64,000 nt of DNA from positions 64,001 to 128,000 of IMG/VR virus record IMGVR_UViG_3300033233_000004; one strand, 5' to 3'. The notes under the pieces are model-generated. The model was not told the origin of the DNA. It made no database searches and saw only the letters and a program-made list of their open reading frames with translations. The DNA comes from a virus. Every line of letters starts with the position of its first letter. The stretch's first letter is position 1. Below, one piece after another: positions 6,529-63,710 of the stretch. Both the position numbers and the translations under genes were made by a program.

Positions 6529-7029
6529 TTAAGATTTACCATATCTGCGTCTCTTTTGTTGTTTTACAGGTTTAATAACGTCTTGAATAGTAAAATGATG
6601 TGGCTTTATATCAGCATATAAAATCTTAAGCCGTTTAACATCTTTCGTTAAATAGTTAATAGTATTTCTATAATTAACTGGATACAGACGGTCATCTATA
6701 AGTTTACCAGCCTCTTTAGCATCTATAAGAATAGCAATACATGCCAACACATGTCCCAAATGATGAACGCCGGAATCAGGAGCAAAATCTTCACCTTCAA
6801 GCCATGCATCCAAATGTCTACGAGCAGCATCATAATATATGGATGCTCGTACACCAGCAATACGCCAATTAGTACGACCATATTTTAGCATACCTTCAAG
6901 AAGACCAAGAACACCATACATTGTTGCCGTATTAGGCCAAAGATGGAGTGGCATCTTATCACTACCAATAATATCTTTTGGATTTGTTGGTTTAAGATTA
7001 GGTATTGCCTTAATGTTTTTCTTAATCAT
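6529..7029 (-). CDS. dATP/dGTP diphosphohydrolase domain protein (DUF5664-like)
   Basis: NPKD..G..K, GMLKYGRTNWR, YYDAARRHL.AW.EGED..PDSGVHHLGH. Confidence 0.8.
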   Translation of the reverse strand: MIKKNIKAIPNLKPTNPKDIIGSDKMPLHLWPNTATMYGVLGLLEGMLKYGRTNWRIAGVRASIYYDAARRHLDAWLEGEDFAPDSGVHHLGHVLACIAILIDAKEAGKLIDDRLYPVNYRNTINYLTKDVKRLKILYADIKPHHFTIQDVIKPVKQQKRRRYGKS

Positions 7030-7337
7030 ATATATTGTCCAAAAAGTTTTCTGAAAAATGATTCAAAAGTATTGGAATAATAAGTACCAAGCCAAAGACC
7101 TACCAACCATATCAATGAAACATAGAAGTTAACAATGATACCTTCAACCAAAAAGATTGAACACAAACCTATACCAACTGACCAGAAAGCAGCTTCTCGT
7201 AAGAGAAGCTTGCGCTTGAGAGAATCTTGTGTACGTTTACATTCAGATAATTTCTGAATGTAAATTGCCCACATGAAATCGGTAACGATTCCAGAAATAA
7301 AAAGTGTTATTGCGAGTAACCAGAGATTCATTGACAT
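7026..7337 (-). CDS. small membrane protein
   Basis: About three hydrophobic segments; ATGA overlap with the downstream gene. Confidence 0.6.
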   Translation of the reverse strand: MSMNLWLLAITLFISGIVTDFMWAIYIQKLSECKRTQDSLKRKLLLREAAFWSVGIGLCSIFLVEGIIVNFYVSLIWLVGLWLGTYYSNTFESFFRKLFGQYI

Positions 7338-27080: not shown

Positions 27081-29251
27081 TATGGTCTATTTGGAATAGT
27101 AGTTGGGTTTGTTTGTGTATCTGGCAATAGAGTCGAAGAATCTGTAAGTACAGACTGGCGTAGACCAGTATTATCAACCTTGGGTTGATTAGCGTCATCA
27201 TTTTTGACAATACGAATATGACCGTCTGTAGCATGCATGATATCAAAATCCTGTGTTAGTATTTCTGAAATTTCTTCCCACGGTTTATGTCCATACGCCA
27301 AATGAAGTGTAGTCGTATGTTGTCCACCAAATGTAAAAGCATGCTCTACCGTTTCGACCCAATACACCATGTTACGGAAGGGGATATAAACCGGAAAGCC
27401 GGGTTCTATTTCGGCTCTTCCTACAATAGTTATTTGTCCTTGTAGTTTATTAGCTATCAATTGTTGAAGCAGTTTCTTCGCATAGAAATTAGCTTGGTCA
27501 GAAGAGAAAGGTCTGGCATTGGCTATATCATCAATAGAAGCTAAAAATGGATTTGTCATAGTCAGAATTTTTACACCAAACTTATACATAAGTAGTTCGT
27601 CAGCATAAAAACCTCTTCCTAAAGCGTCACCAATTTGTCCCGGAGGTTGTACACCACCTTTTGCTGAAATACCAGCTTCAGACGCTACAACAGCAACAGA
27701 ATACACATTGGTGTCATCTTCGACAAAACCGTAACTGATAATAGAATCGTCTTCTATGATAGGTAATTTGTCGTTCTCTGCTGCAAGAATCCAACCGTTA
27801 GAATAACGAGGCGGATGAAACCAAATATGTCCATTACGGTCGGCGTAGAAGTTGAACTTAGAGTCCTCAGCGACCTTGTAGCAAATATCTCTACGATTCA
27901 TATACTCGGTCTGGAACTCTGAAGGCAACATAAAATTAGTTTTGTACGCAAGGTAATAATCTAAATCAGTAATGGTGGGGTCAATAACGTGTACTGCGGA
28001 TTTGGTAAAAAGTGTTCCCATCATACCACGAACGTCTATCGTGGAAACTTTCTTAGAAGCACCCGATACAGCATCATTCGTTACAACAAACGAGTCTGTA
28101 GTATTGTCATAAACAATGTTTTGATTATTTGTGGTATTCTCACCAGCAATCACATACAAACCAACACCAAGAAAATCTTTACCTCGTCCATCAAAACCAG
28201 TTCGTGCGGCTGTGGCAGTATCAAGACCCTTTGTTCCTAATGTAAGAAAACGAATAACATTTGGCGCACTCAGCCCTGCAAAAATATTGGTAACTGAAAT
28301 TTCTTTACTACTTATTGATAATTTACCATGTAGTTGGTCTTCTATAACAGCAACGGGGTTTGTTGGAACAACAGAAAGTTTAAGCCATTTGGTTACATCC
28401 TCACCAGACACTGTGATGGTATTGCCGCCTGAATCGGCATAACCCATTTGTACAGTGTTTACTAATCCAGTGAATACACGCACAAGTTCAGTCTTTGGTA
28501 CTTGATTGATTTTCCAGTTTCCAGTGTTGTCTTGAGTGAAACGCTTTGAAATGAAAATAGCAACTCTATCCATAGGTTCGATCTTACATCGACCGACAGT
28601 CTTGGTAACACCCAATTGATATTTACTTAAAAAATCTACATTAGATTTCTTCAACAAAGTAAACAAACGTGTTTTTGTTTGTCCTGCTGAATTCTTCACC
28701 GTAAATGGGAGTGTTTTACCATTGGTAGTTGGACTTTGGAAATCCTCTTCCGATAGATCATCAGATACGGTAATGACATCTCCATTTTCATCAAATGCCC
28801 ATCGTTCTACAACATTACCATCAGGCGTGCGTCGATAATGAATTGGTGTACGAAATTTTCTGTCTGTGGATACCAGCACGCCCCATTGAAATGTAAGCCA
28901 AGGAAATTTGCCATCCTTGAGTCCATCAAATTCATAATAGCGTTGTCCGCCTTTTTTGGTAGACTTAAAGCTACGTTGGGATATGTCTCGTTTGACTTGA
29001 AAGTCAGAGTTATACTTCAAGTTAGGTATCTCTATAGTTGGATTATCTGGTAAAGAAAATCTGTTGGCAACATCATTGATAGTTATAGAAAATGTTCCGG
29101 GATTGTTCGCAACAGTTAGTGTTACATTCAATGATGCTATCTCTTTTGTGTGTAATAGAAGAAGATCGTCATTAGTAATATTTTCTATCTCTCGAAATGA
29201 TTTTAAGAACACTACCAATGCGTCTGGGTAATAGTGAGTGGTCTGTGCCAT
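27080..29251 (-). CDS. baseplate hub protein
   Basis: PMDRV.IF, VFTGLV, FYAD.NG.I.F.PP.Y, I.GRAEIEPG.PVY...YWVE.V.H. Confidence 0.7.
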   Translation of the reverse strand: MAQTTHYYPDALVVFLKSFREIENITNDDLLLLHTKEIASLNVTLTVANNPGTFSITINDVANRFSLPDNPTIEIPNLKYNSDFQVKRDISQRSFKSTKKGGQRYYEFDGLKDGKFPWLTFQWGVLVSTDRKFRTPIHYRRTPDGNVVERWAFDENGDVITVSDDLSEEDFQSPTTNGKTLPFTVKNSAGQTKTRLFTLLKKSNVDFLSKYQLGVTKTVGRCKIEPMDRVAIFISKRFTQDNTGNWKINQVPKTELVRVFTGLVNTVQMGYADSGGNTITVSGEDVTKWLKLSVVPTNPVAVIEDQLHGKLSISSKEISVTNIFAGLSAPNVIRFLTLGTKGLDTATAARTGFDGRGKDFLGVGLYVIAGENTTNNQNIVYDNTTDSFVVTNDAVSGASKKVSTIDVRGMMGTLFTKSAVHVIDPTITDLDYYLAYKTNFMLPSEFQTEYMNRRDICYKVAEDSKFNFYADRNGHIWFHPPRYSNGWILAAENDKLPIIEDDSIISYGFVEDDTNVYSVAVVASEAGISAKGGVQPPGQIGDALGRGFYADELLMYKFGVKILTMTNPFLASIDDIANARPFSSDQANFYAKKLLQQLIANKLQGQITIVGRAEIEPGFPVYIPFRNMVYWVETVEHAFTFGGQHTTTLHLAYGHKPWEEISEILTQDFDIMHATDGHIRIVKNDDANQPKVDNTGLRQSVLTDSSTLLPDTQTNPTTIPNRP

Positions 29252-57407: not shown

Positions 57408-58103
57408 TTACTCCTCAGTTGTTGGTTTTAACCATAGTTGTGGATAAAGCTTAAAAAGGGTATATGTTAACCGCCCAAACTTATTCAAAGCAAGGAGAGT
57501 CTTATATGAATTTGCTTTGAAGCATTTGGTCAACTCATCACGTACTCGATCTACGGAGACAGTATTCAACTTGTTAATAAGCTTATCATTATAGAGACAT
57601 ACTTCCGTCTCATTCACAATCTGAAAGTCTTTCGTAATAGAGAAGCGAATAGCTCTCAACATACGGAGCGGGTCTTCATTGAAGCGGTCAAATGAATTAC
57701 CAACGCATCGAATAAGACCGACAGTGATAGCTGTACGTCCATTATGAGGATCAATATACTCTCCTGTCTCGACATCTTGAGCAATGGCGTTCATGGTGAA
57801 ATCTCGTCTGGCTAAGTCATCGTAGATGGTACCCACTGTAACATTATCTGGTCGTCTGCCATCTGAATAGAAACCATCCCTGCGACATAATACAAAATCA
57901 GCATCACCCAACTTTGGCATCTTAGCCCGAATGGTCAGATACTGTTCCCGTTCCTGCCATATGGTACCACCATTGGCGAGAATGTAGTCACGCATAGCTT
58001 CATAGCTTGGAGCTTCAACAGCGTAGTCCAAATCTTTACCAATAGATAAACCAAGCAACTGGTCTCGAAGGGTTCCACCAACAAGATAAATTTTGATACT
58101 CAT
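57408..58103 (-). CDS. cca: tRNA nucleotidyltransferase (CCA-adding enzyme)
   Basis: YLVGG.LRD.LLG...KDLD, DDLARRDFTMNA, EDPLRMLRAIRF. Confidence 0.9.
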   Translation of the reverse strand: MSIKIYLVGGTLRDQLLGLSIGKDLDYAVEAPSYEAMRDYILANGGTIWQEREQYLTIRAKMPKLGDADFVLCRRDGFYSDGRRPDNVTVGTIYDDLARRDFTMNAIAQDVETGEYIDPHNGRTAITVGLIRCVGNSFDRFNEDPLRMLRAIRFSITKDFQIVNETEVCLYNDKLINKLNTVSVDRVRDELTKCFKANSYKTLLALNKFGRLTYTLFKLYPQLWLKPTTEE

Positions 58104-59333: not shown

Positions 59334-59335
59334 AG

Positions 59336-59421
59336 TACCCTCAGTAGGATTCGAACCTACACGCTACTATTACTTCGCACTGGCTTCTAAGGCCAGCATG
59401 TCTGCATTTCATCATGAGGGC
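59336..59421 (-). tRNA. tRNA-Leu(UAG), no encoded CCA
   Basis: GCCCTCA/TGAGGGT acceptor, CTGGC-CTTAGAA-GCCAG, long variable arm, GGTTCGAATCC. Confidence 0.9.
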
Positions 59422-59611
59422 AGTAATAAGTACTATGGTGACATTGCATTTGCAGCGAAGGACTTACTCTTAAAGTTACTGGCGGAAAAAGCACAAGAAG
59501 CAGGCGAAAGTATACCTTCTTGTGTAAGACCAGCAAGTAAACGAGCGGACAATGAACGAACTATACTTGAAGAGCTATCATTTGCTACGCCAGTACACAT
59601 TACAACTATTG

Positions 59612-59684
59612 TCAAGGTGTTGGGAATCGAACCCAAATTATTCCAATTTCCGATACTGGTACCATACCATTAGGCGACACCCTG
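59612..59684 (-). tRNA. tRNA-Pro(CGG), atypical anticodon loop
   Basis: CAGGGTG/CACCTTG-A, CCAGT-ATCGGAA-ATTGG, GGTTCGATTCC. Confidence 0.75.
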
Positions 59685-59756
59685 AAATTTTTGAGGAGTC
59701 ACGGTCGCACACGCTTCGTGCATCCAAGTTAACCGTTTGTGAGTTGACTCCTCATT

Positions 59757-60251
59757 TTATAACTCTCTTCGTACTATTTTATCCGCCGCATAAGATGCAG
59801 CATATGCTTCTGGCTTAGGCGTACATGGAAAACCACAACCTCGAACCCATCCTATTGCCCAATCATACATTTCATTGCTTTTGAATTCTTTCTCTTTGTT
59901 GAAGTCTAAATGCATGTCATACTCCACAATATTTGGTAATTCAAATGTACCAGTATCTCTGAAATAAGTAGCCATCTCAATGATAATTTCAACTTCACGA
60001 CTCAATCGTTTGAAATCATCTCGATGATATTCTCTTGTCATAGTCCCAACAATGTGTGCACCTTTACCATAACGGTAAAGTACAATAGCGATACCAAATT
60101 CTGCCCATCCCGCATCTTTTGGAAGAGAATCACATCCTACCCAAAGAGAAAATGGTTCCTGTCGATACTCAGCAACATATGCTTTAATATATTGTGCCAA
60201 GTCAGTAATATGAACACGAGAGAGACCAGTTGTTCTAAACTTGAAATCCAT
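59757..60251 (-). CDS. RNase H-like YkuK (DUF458) family protein
   Basis: VGCDS, GKGAH, RL..EV, HLDFN, KP.AYAASYAAD. Confidence 0.85.
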   Translation of the reverse strand: MDFKFRTTGLSRVHITDLAQYIKAYVAEYRQEPFSLWVGCDSLPKDAGWAEFGIAIVLYRYGKGAHIVGTMTREYHRDDFKRLSREVEIIIEMATYFRDTGTFELPNIVEYDMHLDFNKEKEFKSNEMYDWAIGWVRGCGFPCTPKPEAYAASYAADKIVRREL

Positions 60252-60291
60252 GTCTATGGTTTCCTTTCTTTGTCAGCGTAACTTATTATTG

Positions 60292-60362
60292 CTGCCCCAC
60301 AGAGATTCGAACTCCGATAAACACCTTCAAAGGGTGCCGTCCTTCCGTTGAACGATGAGGCA
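60292..60362 (-). tRNA. tRNA-Gln(UUG), no CCA
   Basis: TGCCTCA/TGGGGCA-G, GCACC-CTTTGAA-GGTGT. Confidence 0.9.
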
Positions 60363-60368
60363 ATTATT

Positions 60369-60875
60369 TTACATAAAAATAAATGCTATAACGAATGACA
60401 CAATCAAACCAATTGCTGCTTGAATCAACAAGATTCTTCCAAAAATAGGTGTCACTCTTGTTATCTTTGGTGAAATCTTCTTAAATATGAAATTGTATGC
60501 CTGTAAAAATAATCCAACCAATGTCCACGATGCCCATACAACTTCGTTTCCCAATACTTCCAACATAAATGCAAATTTATGATTGTACCAATTGAATATG
60601 TAGCAGAACAGATAGTAAAGCAAATCTGCCAACCATACATCCCACATGAAAAGAAACAAAATTGCAGGAACCCAACTAAACTGCCACCAAAGTACTGTTG
60701 TAAGAAGTATCTGAAAAATGGTTTGATAGATTCGATATTCATTAACTTCCCATTTAAAAAATGTAACCATAATATTATTTCGCCCAAGTTTGTTATACCC
60801 TATATAATCAAATAAGGCAAACACAAACAATGCTGCAAAAGCTATTAACCATATAATAATCCATGAAAACATCAT
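60369..60875 (-). CDS. multi-pass membrane protein
   Basis: Several TM helices; start at ATG 60875 after GAAGG, since the longer ORF overlaps tRNA-Lys. Confidence 0.65.
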   Translation of the reverse strand: MMFSWIIIWLIAFAALFVFALFDYIGYNKLGRNNIMVTFFKWEVNEYRIYQTIFQILLTTVLWWQFSWVPAILFLFMWDVWLADLLYYLFCYIFNWYNHKFAFMLEVLGNEVVWASWTLVGLFLQAYNFIFKKISPKITRVTPIFGRILLIQAAIGLIVSFVIAFIFM

Positions 60876-60889
60876 AGTACCTTCCTTTT

Positions 60890-60965
60890 TGGTGCATCCA
60901 GTAGGAGTCGAACCTACAACCTTTCGATTAAGAATCGAAAGCTCTACCAATTGAGCTATGGATAC
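60890..60965 (-). tRNA. tRNA-Lys(CUU) with encoded CCA
   Basis: Canonical 76-nt cloverleaf, TTCGA-TTCTTAA-TCGAA. Confidence 0.95.
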
Positions 60966-60992
60966 GTATTTTTAAATTCGAACTGTATTTTG

Positions 60993-61064
60993 TGCCGCCA
61001 CTCAGAATCGAACTGAGGCCTCGCTGCTTAAAAGGCAGGTGAGCTACCATTACCCCATGGGGGC
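60993..61064 (-). tRNA. tRNA-Lys(UUU), with stem mismatches
   Basis: CTGC-CTTTTAA-GCAG, CTCAG-TTCGATT-CTGAG; C.C mismatches in acceptor and anticodon stems. Confidence 0.75.
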
Positions 61065-61106
61065 GATTTTATTTCATCCCATAAGGCGTTTCATCAATTG
61101 GTGAAA

Positions 61107-61589
61107 CTACTCATTAGGTGAAACTTCAAACGGAGACTCCTGTTTAAGAGCCTCAGTCTGTTTAGAACGTAATTCATCAAGTTCCTGTTTGGATTCTATA
61201 ACTTCTTGTTTCATTGCTTCTACAAGAGTATCCACAAGTGTAGGAGTTAATGCAACAGACTGACCAGATACTTCCGTATTTCGTTCTTGTTCATCCTTAA
61301 CAAACTTATAACACGAAGACAGATTTTTCTTGATTAACTTGGCATTATTCAAATCAGCACGAATATAACTTTCTATCTTTCCATTGAATAAATATTGTGC
61401 TTTAGCACCGTCCATTCCATTCCATATATATCGAACAGAACCATCATTGAAAAATAATGCTAATTCAAATGCAACAGTACCTTCTGGAAGATTCAGAGCT
61501 TTAATATCTTCATTGATATCCGGTCTATTAACCAAACCCATTTCTGCATTAATTTCTTCTGCTGATTTTGTTACTGTATTTTCTTCCAT
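61107..61589 (-). CDS. hypothetical acidic protein
   Basis: GAGGA ribosome binding site, 160 aa. Confidence 0.6.
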   Translation of the reverse strand: MEENTVTKSAEEINAEMGLVNRPDINEDIKALNLPEGTVAFELALFFNDGSVRYIWNGMDGAKAQYLFNGKIESYIRADLNNAKLIKKNLSSCYKFVKDEQERNTEVSGQSVALTPTLVDTLVEAMKQEVIESKQELDELRSKQTEALKQESPFEVSPNE

Positions 61590-61685
61590 GATATCCTCTT
61601 TGTGTCTGGATATGTCTTGATACTTATGAATTGATTAAATACTGTCTATTTTCTGGACATTTATCTGGACATAATGTCCAAATTG

Positions 61686-61768
61686 CAGATAGTACGAGAC
61701 TTGAACTCGTAATCCCAATTAAGGACACCAATATTCCAAATTGGCTCTTTTCCATTCAGTTACTCTTT
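61686..61768 (-). tRNA. degenerate tRNA-Ser(GGA), probable pseudogene
   Basis: CCAAT-TTGGAAT-ATTGG, long variable arm, ACGAG-TTCAAGT-CTCGT, G73; two acceptor mismatches. Confidence 0.55.
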
Positions 61769-62221
61769 ATTTACATTAGTTGTTGCTCCCCATCCACGAG
61801 CTTGTCTATATGCAGTTGTGTCTTGTTCTGGATGAAGGCTACGAAAATTTCTTTTGTTTATTATTTTACAAAGTTTACATATTCTGCTGTTTCTGTTTGG
61901 TGGTATATAAGTATTGTCTTTATCATATGCATGTCCTTTTGGACAATGTGTTTTATTGGTTCGAGGTTCTCCAACATTACACGCTAAATGACTGAAAGCT
62001 ATATTACTTAAATCCCAAAATAATTTGGGGTCATTATTTAACCATGCAGTCTTATGCTCAATCGACAAGTCTTCTACAAATTCTATACAGCGATTACATC
62101 TATAACAAATATTCTCGTTATGAAGAATAAGCAAATGAAAGATAATCATTTTACGTAAACGTCCATTTGCCGTTCCAAATGGCATACCTAACTGTGCAGT
62201 TTTAATTGCATTAGAGTTCAT
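61760..62221 (-). CDS. HNH endonuclease
   Basis: CYRC..LSIEH...N....H..CN; THCPKGH..Y...RICKLC. Confidence 0.8.
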   Translation of the reverse strand: MNSNAIKTAQLGMPFGTANGRLRKMIIFHLLILHNENICYRCNRCIEFVEDLSIEHKTAWLNNDPKLFWDLSNIAFSHLACNVGEPRTNKTHCPKGHAYDKDNTYIPPNRNSRICKLCKIINKRNFRSLHPEQDTTAYRQARGWGATTNVNKE

Positions 62222-62253
62222 TTTAAGTCCTTTGACATTATGAACAAATAGAG

Positions 62254-62342
62254 CGGAGAGGTAGGGACTCGAACCCTATTGGGAGCTTTCGCCCCCCACG
62301 GTTTAGCAGACCGTTGCGACGCACCATCTTCGCCGCCTCTCC
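62254..62342 (-). tRNA. tRNA-Ser(GCU), no CCA
   Basis: GGAGAGG/CCTCTCC-G, ACGGT-CTGCTAA-ACCGT, long variable arm. Confidence 0.92.
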
Positions 62343-62395
62343 ATGCAAGTTTTCAAATAATGTCAATACTTAGGAGACCTTGCAACCCATACGAA

Positions 62396-62704
62396 CTAAT
62401 TCAACATTTCCATCCGTTTCACAGATAATAACATTCTTACAGTAAATACATTGGCTTCATCTTCCATATCATGACATTCACAAACAGGAAAGAAGACCAA
62501 TCTTGAAGTACCATCACCACGAGACCCAAATCCAAGAGCAGCCTCATCACCATCTGGAAGAATTACACCCCAATTATTAGTCGATGCTGTACAAATCCAG
62601 CAAGATGCATAACTGTTCTTTAATGAAGCAATCTTATTTTTGATAGCTTTGCTGAATTCTTCTATAGTTGGTATATTCATACAGTTTTCGCCAATCCTGT
62701 TCAT
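62396..62704 (-). CDS. hypothetical Cys-motif protein
   Basis: CWIC...CECH. Confidence 0.55.
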   Translation of the reverse strand: MNRIGENCMNIPTIEEFSKAIKNKIASLKNSYASCWICTASTNNWGVILPDGDEAALGFGSRGDGTSRLVFFPVCECHDMEDEANVFTVRMLLSVKRMEMLN

Positions 62705-62740
62705 TATTTATCTCTGTTCACAAAAAATGAACATATCAAA

Positions 62741-62995
62741 AAATGAACACAATGAGCTTACGCCAACTTCTGCTTTAGGTCATGATTTCTCTTGCGGCCT
62801 GTACCCGCCTTCATCGGTAAAGAATGCGTCTACCTCTGGCTGTTTCAGTTGCACACATACTGGTGGTACTATCGAACTGACCGTAGCTTTCAGGGCTACG
62901 ACCAGTTCTCCCGCTCATTCTTAGTGTGGTCGGACGTTTCTCTCATCCCTATTCCTACAGGGATAGAGCCATGACTTCTCTGTTGTGTTTCATTT
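62741..62995 (-). ncRNA. rnpB: RNase P RNA, minimal (catalytic domain intact, specificity domain reduced, no P18)
   Basis: P1, P2 GUCAUGG/UCAUGAC, P3, P4 ACG(U)CCGAC/GUUGGCGU, P5 CACAC/GUGUG, P6 GAAUG/CAUUC, P15 CUG/CAG with GGGUA loop, P16, P17. Confidence 0.88.
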
Positions 62996-63194
62996 CATAC
63001 TTCTCGTTCAAACAATACAAACACATTTGTTGCGTTGCATAACCGTTATCCAATTCATATCTCTTTGTTTCAACATATGCATGATGTTTGAATATATGAC
63101 ACAGTATTGCTCTACCGAGAGGTTTCAACGAACCTACATATATCACTATCCTCGGAAAAAGATACGGAATTCGTATGACAATTGGATTTTTCAT
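62955..63194 (-). CDS. hypothetical protein; 3' end overlaps the RNase P RNA
   Basis: MKNPIV...LCHIFKH...CLYC; the upstream part of the listed ORF lies in tRNA-Gly. Confidence 0.45.
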   Translation of the reverse strand: MKNPIVIRIPYLFPRIVIYVGSLKPLGRAILCHIFKHHAYVETKRYELDNGYATQQMCLYCLNEKYEMKHNREVMALSL

Positions 63195-63196
63195 TG

Positions 63197-63269
63197 TGTA
63201 GGTGAAGAGATTCGAACTCTCACGCCAGCGTTGGCAACGCCGTATGCTAACCATTAACATCACACCTAC
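63197..63269 (-). tRNA. tRNA-Gly(GCC), atypical acceptor stem
   Basis: GTAGGTG/CACCTAC-A, CGGCG-TTGCCAA-CGCTG. Confidence 0.88.
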
Positions 63270-63354
63270 AAAAACTTAGCTGTCTCATATTGCTCTATCG
63301 TGCGACATTCAACCCATACGAATCTTAATAGGCACTCCTATCCGAATGGGTTTG

Positions 63355-63429
63355 TAGCCTCAGAAGGAGTTGAACCCTCAAATCTCTGCGTTCGAAGCGC
63401 AGCATGTTATCCAGTTACACCATGAGGCC
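63355..63429 (-). tRNA. tRNA-Arg(UCG), no CCA
   Basis: GGCCTCA/TGAGGCT-A, CTGCG-CTTCGAA-CGCAG. Confidence 0.9.
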
Positions 63430-63639
63430 AAAATGAATCTTTTACAGTTCGACCAACATCAAGGTCAAAGTCGAGTTCAAAATAGAAGCAACTTACGTTA
63501 CCTTGTATTTAACAAGTTCCACCGACAGAAAGCGTTTGGTAGTAAGTAAGGGAGACTATTATCGACTGGCGGTGCCATAACCGTTAGTCCAGTTGATGCT
63601 TTCGTCTTCTTCTTTATGGCAAGTACTCCTATTTTTTTG

Positions 63640-63710
63640 AGCGGGTAGTGGTAGTTGAAACCACGTCCGATGGTTGGAAGCCACCTATAATACCGTTATA
63701 CGATACCCGC
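63640..63710 (-). tRNA. tRNA-Gly(UCC), no CCA
   Basis: GCGGGTA/TACCCGC-T, GGTGG-CTTCCAA-CCATC. Confidence 0.9.

Follow-up and report, generated by a model that had tools for sequence, protein, structure and literature searches.

The RNA enzyme RNase P, which trims new tRNAs, counts as a housekeeping ribozyme of the cell. The locus described here raises the question of whether a phage carries such a ribozyme of its own and, if so, what it would be for. An earlier note, made from the letters of a 64,000-nt stretch of phage DNA (hereafter the window), had proposed a miniaturised RNase P RNA within a tRNA array. Judged by its sequence, the minus strand at window 62743-62993 carries, within a phage tRNA array, a genuine homologue of RNase P RNA (Table 1). 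A covariance-model match and covariation seen across independent homologues from phages support this identity. We found no published phage- or virus-encoded RNase P RNA in full-text searches, where most matches were judged from titles or abstracts and subscription papers mostly lay outside coverage, or when a 2024 review was checked by keyword; diverged cellular forms of this RNA are already known in CPR (PMC8172020).

Identification of the RNA and its genomic setting

In an Rfam covariance search, the bacterial type A model RF00010 matched the locus over model positions 1-367 with 30.5 bits and E-values of 3.3e-7 (local) and 5.5e-9 (whole genome), the sole match in the genome. The covariance-model check that the earlier note had suggested thus came out positive for bacterial type A, while the archaeal and type T models remained blank. 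The score lies below the gathering threshold of 100 bits, so that the RNA is missed at Rfam gathering thresholds. Neither the bacterial type B model RF00011 nor the archaeal type A/M model RF00373 gave a match at E<=10, with controls detected; the type T model RF02357 gave none at E<=10 either, with a control set that held no true type T genome. The fold z-score of the RNA is modest (-2.3), and a blastn search with the RNA against cultured phages returned only chance matches in helicase genes. A second weak model match at window 27375-27443 (E 0.05-0.1) was rejected as a mere CR-V-like word.

The record that holds the locus is a complete phage genome of 171,836 bp, probably from sediment, with terminal repeats, a terminase and a tail sheath. 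The probable source run was also assembled independently; in that assembly, probably of the same sample, one 26-kb contig crosses the locus with zero differences. On the minus strand near the RNA, we found neither a sigma-70 promoter nor a terminator. The 79-codon ORF at 62955-63194 (minus) starts 1 nt past tRNA-Gly and has a Cys/His pattern. By eye, the ORF list also contains a chaperonin of GroEL-like type and a series of sugar-nucleotide-like enzymes (G000 C1 21995-23626 and 48739-58668).

Table 1. Features at and around the phage RNase P RNA locus, in window coordinates.
Feature	Position	Strand	Basis or remark
Miniature RNase P RNA gene	62743..62993	minus	251 nt, P1-bounded; RF00010 E 5.5e-9, helix map, leave-one-out phage model R2 36.2 bits E 7.2e-9
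P1	62993-62978/62756-62743	minus	helix map
P2	62975-62970/62784-62779	minus	6 bp plus conserved unpaired G
P3	62968-62959/62950-62942	minus	helix map
CR-I and P4 5' strand	62929..62942	minus	equivalents of G61, A62, A65, A66, G68 and bulged U69 kept; G64-to-A, A67-to-C
P4	62937-62929/62767-62760	minus	8/8 pairs; bulged U 62934
P5	62928-62924/62856-62852	minus	helix map
P6 pseudoknot	62922-62916/62826-62820	minus	7 Watson-Crick pairs
S-domain remnant	62857..62915	minus	59 nt between P6 and P5 3'
Remnant lower stem	62914-62911/62866-62863	minus	4 bp including one C.A mismatch, then GA step
Remnant hairpin	62908-62874	minus	perfect 14 bp
Remnant loop strand	62873-62867	minus	7 nt; 3' end is a candidate T-loop pentamer U-N-N-N-A
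J5/15 CAA, 3-bp P15, L15, P16, P17 block	62799..62851	minus	helix map and family comparison
J5/15 CAA	62851-62849	minus	helix map
L15	62845-62841/62806-62802	minus	GGU pairing with tRNA 3' RCC
P16	62840-62838/62809-62807	minus	helix map
Kink-turn, P16/P17 junction	62810..62837	minus	tandem G.A/A.G 62836-62835 and 62812-62811; 3-nt bulge 62815-62813
CR-IV	62785..62792	minus	J15/2 just upstream, without P18
CR-V and P4 3' strand	62760..62773	minus	equivalents of G350/A351/A352 kept; U359-to-G, A347-to-G
ORF, 79 codons, reality uncertain	62955..63194	minus	overlaps first 39 nt of the RNA (P1-P3 5' strands); no Pfam match
tRNA-Gly(GCC)	63196..63269	minus	nearest upstream tRNA
tRNA-Ser(GCU)	62253..62342	minus	nearest downstream tRNA
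tRNA array, window part	59335..63710	minus	continues past window
tRNA nucleotidyltransferase, CCA-adding family	57408..58103	minus	PHROG 24229 E 8e-51; PF01743

A complete catalytic domain of bacterial type A

Every strand that the earlier note had named for the type A catalytic helices was found on the minus strand and in the correct order, with small corrections. The RNA is as short as had been estimated (about 255 nt), its ends now refined to 251 nt (62993 to 62743). P2 (GUCAUGG/UCAUGAC) consists of six pairs and a conserved unpaired G, and the P6 pseudoknot extends beyond GAAUG/CAUUC to seven pairs. This extension leaves P17 (GGUAGA/UUUACC), initially read as 6 bp, with 4 bp that abut P6, as in the homologues. 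P4 with its bulged U and compensated C-G change, the L15 loop AAACA/GGGUA and P16 lie where they had been placed, and the helix map bears out the absence of P18. Altogether, about 70 base pairs form in this map, with one mismatch.

The conserved core is likewise largely in register. In the numbering of E. coli M1 RNA, G19, C20-G61, A62, A65, A66, G68, U69 and G350-A352 have their equivalents, as have J5/15 CAA, L15 GGGUA and CR-IV; by the same numbering, the variants are G64-to-A, A67-U359 to C-G and A347-to-G. The U359-to-G change compensates C67, giving C-G where E. coli has A67-U359. The RNA thus possesses the general RNase P RNA framework of CR-IV and P1/P2/P3 and a P4 pseudoknot with bulged U, built from CR-I and CR-V. 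It further has the type A P6 pseudoknot with P16/P17 and the type A substrate contacts, L15 GGU and J5/15 CAA; its P15 comprises only 3 bp. P8-P14 and P18 of type A are lacking, with a P7/P9-like stem only, and in place of the interdigitated T-loops of CR-II/CR-III there is at most one candidate T-loop. This anatomy is best explained by descent from bacterial type A: the catalytic domain is complete, and of the specificity domain (S-domain) a one-stem remnant is left.

The S-domain remnant and a kink-turn

The S-domain region had been described as about 59 nt consisting mainly of one 14-bp hairpin. Its length and the hairpin stand, but the region also holds a conserved internal loop. The remnant is laid out as a stem of 4 bp, followed by a GA step, a hairpin that varies and a loop strand of 6-8 nt that begins with a purine and ends with A; a pairing-only search found this internal loop (2 x 6-8) in 17 of the 25 family members. 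The last five bases of the loop strand read U-N-N-N-A in most members; because a T-loop is difficult to recognise in the letters alone, that of the remnant is only a candidate. Given this conserved loop, the relaxed specificity suggested in the earlier note is less certain than stated there. At its tip, the 14-bp hairpin has a 7-nt loop (62888-62894, minus) with a T-loop-like purine/pyrimidine pattern; in several homologues a GNRA tetraloop stands there, although any significance of this is speculative.

An addition to the first reading is a kink-turn joining P16 and P17. Both K-turn adenines occur in 23 of 25 family members, and seven, the phage copy included, have the fully canonical tandem G.A form.

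A family of miniature phage RNase P RNAs

Homologues were sought on viral and metagenome contigs by motif scans for CR-I and CR-V spaced 120-180 nt apart, and 24 were chosen by eye as lacking the canonical CR-II/III pair and keeping P6. Most of these short homologues lie beside tRNA genes; a few are on short contigs not shown to be viral. The 24 fall into two grades. Two scan matches put to Rfam scored 75-80 bits over 227-235 nt, among tRNAs. The cultured Microbacterium phage A3Wally has an unannotated homologue (172 bits) between two tRNA-Pro genes, which belongs to the larger grade, with a conserved AU-rich module at the former T-loop site and without P12. In the minimal grade (L015, L037, L047, L121, L199, L035), only 40-47 nt separate the P5 strands. 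Further short phage RNAs, which retain CR-II/III, form a third group. J5/15 is CAA in 22 of the 24 homologues, and L15 reads GGGUA in most.

The phage copy is 57-70% identical to the homologues, most closely to the minimal grade. The leave-one-out model R2 found it (36.2 bits, compared with 118-210 bits for training members of model R1), but short cellular RNAs score above it on the leave-one-out model, so that its placement rests on architecture and not on score. By this architecture, namely the remnant internal loop, the kink-turn, the 3-bp P15 and the location in a tRNA array, the phage copy belongs to the miniature family.

The covariation check among homologous phage RNAs, also proposed in the earlier note, revealed covariation in P2, P5, P6, P16 and P17. 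In a sequence-only alignment with 93.5% of cells paired, the covariation score was 0.53, compared with 0.18 for shuffles and <=0.12 for slid controls. Double changes occurred in 18 of 25 pairs, including all six P2 pairs and most pairs of P5, P16 and P17, and P6 averaged 5.4 Watson-Crick bp within sequences as opposed to 2.3 across sequences. The invariance of P4 was partly imposed by the search pattern and is therefore not counted as evidence. At G64, A67 and A347 the phage copy itself matches none of the 24 homologues, a comparison biased by search patterns that fixed or favoured these positions.

Close relatives with the C67-G359 pair were not found; when relatives sharing the CR-I variants of the phage copy were sought, the 4 and 43 matches of the scans all proved spurious. 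The closest relative by terminase (75%) is a 38-kb fragment that does not cover the locus, the contig of the closest relative by CCA enzyme (85%) stops short of the expected RNA position, and more distant CCA-enzyme neighbourhoods, all fragments, did not reveal the RNA. A genome scan returned mainly short cellular RNAs with CR-II kept.

Several other loci deserve mention. In one carrier phage, a GOLLD RNA and a tmRNA also lie inside the same tRNA array (L007:2438-2853 and 6827-7195). A 190-kb phage (L014:10586-10806, = L027) presents the opposite reduction, with P8, CR-II and a P18-like hairpin kept, and P12 and P16/P17 seemingly absent. The minimal-grade homologue L035:129-387 carries an insertion of about 40 nt past L15 and lies on a 1.3-kb contig without a tRNA. 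An AT-rich group near tRNAs (L019, L040, L065, L083, L089, L114, L132, L136) has a canonical P4 and no recognisable P5/P15 landmarks, and may be organelle-like or degenerate. Elusimicrobia and Dojkabacteria (L145, L179, L203, L205, L208; L142, L148, L162, L174) have unusually short cellular RNase P RNAs with a core span of 180-202 nt.

The tRNA array and partner genes

The whole array (G000 C1 123335-140228) lies on the minus strand, with 36 tRNA genes and one for a tmRNA; it is followed by genes for a peptide deformylase and an enzyme of the CCA-adding family. The latter is likely the 3'-end partner of the RNase P RNA; a homologue occurs in six of eight carrier records. The tmRNA and the peptide deformylase point to a bacterial host. 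The gene for the RNase P protein, rnpA, already reported missing from the window, is absent from the whole genome as well, and from all ten records searched (the phage genome and nine other carriers, several of them incomplete); L7Ae and HARP were not found in the phage genome.

The phage tRNAs had been called atypical, yet at the RNase P site they are not notably so: U is found at position -1 in 30 of 36 genes (background 29%) and C74 in 35 of 36 (background 17%). CCA is encoded in only 4 of the 36, and 22 read C74-A75. Carriers of reduced-grade RNAs have C74 in 146/146 and CCA in 12/146 tRNA genes, compared with CCA in 90/129 in carriers that keep CR-II/III; the C74/CCA pattern recurs in other reduced-grade carriers and in phage fragments without a detected RNA. 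We initially considered U-1 and C74 as a specific sign of the phage RNA and rejected this, since they suit host RNase P equally well and are seen in fragments without such an RNA. The pattern fits an RNA-based RNase P, irrespective of whose.

The tRNA-His gene (G000 C1 134688-134761) apparently has A73 and no encoded G-1, as in the alphaproteobacterial form, which is a possible clue to the host. A weak tRNA-Ser(GGA) at 61685-61768 (minus; 25.5 bits, 5/7 acceptor pairs) overlaps the end of an HNH endonuclease ORF (61760-62221) and is perhaps degenerate.

Proposed function and alternatives

From the conserved parts of the RNA and its neighbours, we consider it probable that it matures the phage pre-tRNAs with the help of host RnpA, as part of a phage tRNA kit. 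The RNA would be made from the minus-strand transcript of the tRNA array and would fold through the P4 and P6 pseudoknots, aided by the P16/P17 kink-turn. Host RnpA would bind at P2/P3/P15 and the CR-IV/V face, and phage pre-tRNAs would be gripped via J5/15 (U at -1) and L15 (N73-C74), the tRNA elbow possibly being contacted by the single T-loop in the way that models propose for archaeal type T. The 5' leaders would then be cut off with Mg2+ bound at P4. Together with the phage CCA-adding enzyme and the tmRNA, the RNA would constitute a tRNA-maturation kit that adds capacity, or stands in for host RNase P RNA should this be limiting or destroyed. In favour of tRNA maturation, the substrate-contact sites in J5/15 and L15 are kept besides the protein-binding face. 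Against it count the 32 of 36 precursors that lack the full CCA with which L15 normally pairs, the C.A mismatch in the remnant stem, the core variants, and the roughly 120-fold lower rate of E. coli RNA upon S-domain loss (PMC5839562).

An active ribozyme could also have been retargeted beyond tRNA maturation, to phage or host RNAs in the course of infection. In this unlikely scenario, a stripped phage RNase P converging on type T, working with host RnpA and perhaps a host kink-turn-binding protein, would read the elbow little and cut minihelix-like or NCCA-ended substrates (phage polycistronic RNA, tmRNA, host RNAs). E. coli RNA without the S-domain does cleave model hairpin substrates (PMC5839562), the S-domain has shrunk repeatedly in the family, and plain redundancy with the RNase P that the host already has needs a reason. 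However, the carriers lie inside tRNA arrays, usually with a CCA enzyme, the T-loop-like internal loop is conserved, and the equally reduced type T RNA is modelled as still reading the tRNA elbow (PMC13462272). An unsystematic look noticed neither a guide sequence nor target complementarity, and nothing in our analysis supports the cutting of host RNAs that the earlier note had considered.

The conserved protein-binding face and the lack of a phage-encoded protein partner would also suit a non-catalytic RNA acting as a decoy, be it for host RnpA, which it would soak up, or for a host defence nuclease that targets RNase P RNA or tRNA. This we consider improbable: a sponge would need neither the nucleotides of the substrate contacts and metal site (J5/15, L15 GGU, the bulged U, CR-V) nor P6, which are conserved across the family, and with RnpA blocked, a phage whose 36 tRNAs bear leaders would itself suffer. 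It is equally doubtful that the family is functional and the phage copy a decaying relic. This copy is indeed the most divergent member, as its leave-one-out score indicates, with three unusual core bases, one mismatch and an ORF possibly overlapping its 5' end. Its 18 P2, P4 and P5 pairs, however, contain eight double changes and no broken pair, which argues against decay, and these paired changes, together with the perfect 7-bp P6 and the canonical kink-turn, indicate selection on structure in the lineage of the phage copy. Finally, a host rnpB or an assembly artefact is scarcely credible: the genomes of CPR, Elusimicrobia and DPANN do harbour short RNase P RNAs of cellular kind (PMC8172020), but the record is a complete phage, the independent contig is identical, and the homologue in cultured A3Wally largely refutes this explanation.

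If phage pre-tRNA maturation is the function, a phage RNase P RNA may explain how tRNA-rich phages keep up their tRNA supply. The graded S-domain loss among phage RNAs (CR-II/III still present, then P12 gone, then one stem only) constitutes a natural test series for the minimum size of an RNase P ribozyme and for cut-site finding without a double T-loop. With the A3Wally homologue (host Microbacterium foliorum), function is directly testable.

Comparison with known RNase P RNAs

With bacterial type A (E. coli M1 RNA/rnpB, RF00010), the phage RNA shares the order of P1-P6 and P15-P17, CR-I/IV/V, the bulged U of P4, J5/15 CAA, L15 GGU and a 6-bp P2. It differs in its size (251 nt as opposed to a 367-position model), in lacking P8, P10-P14, P18 and the CR-II/III T-loop pair, in its 3-bp P15, and in being encoded by a phage without rnpA.

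In its reduction it resembles archaeal type T. In the Pyrobaculum RNA, the S-domain is one stem, a single T-loop is modelled between P7 and P9, a kink-turn lies in the pseudoknot region, and CR-II is absent as well (PMC13462272); type T further has a short P15, a 3-bp P2 and a 2-nt J5/15 (PMC3579882). The phage RNA shares the single-stem S-domain with a T-loop-like insert, the retained P6, the missing P18, a P15 one pair short and the kink-turn in the pseudoknot region. Its P2, however, has 6 bp instead of 3 and its J5/15 3 nt instead of 2, the type T model does not match it, and the phage has a tmRNA and a peptide deformylase, with no L7Ae found. As these two type T hallmarks are missing, the likeness is one of convergence, and this convergence on a single stem, a T-loop, a kink-turn and a 3-bp P15 suggests a minimal solution common to both.

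The diverged CPR RNAs are likewise shortened, of bacterial type A origin and missed at Rfam thresholds, but these are cellular, lack P12-P14 and P18, and often do without P16/P17 and the UGG motif (PMC8172020). The short cellular copies in our scans mostly keep CR-II, whereas the phage RNA keeps P6/P16/P17 and drops the S-domain. In this respect, it recalls the engineered E. coli and P. furiosus RNAs that consist of the catalytic domain only and, like it, have P6 and can dispense with P18: without its S-domain, the E. coli catalytic domain still cleaves, provided that it has a P6 mimic (PMC5839562). Those RNAs, however, are laboratory constructs with reduced rates, while the phage RNA is natural and has a conserved remnant stem.
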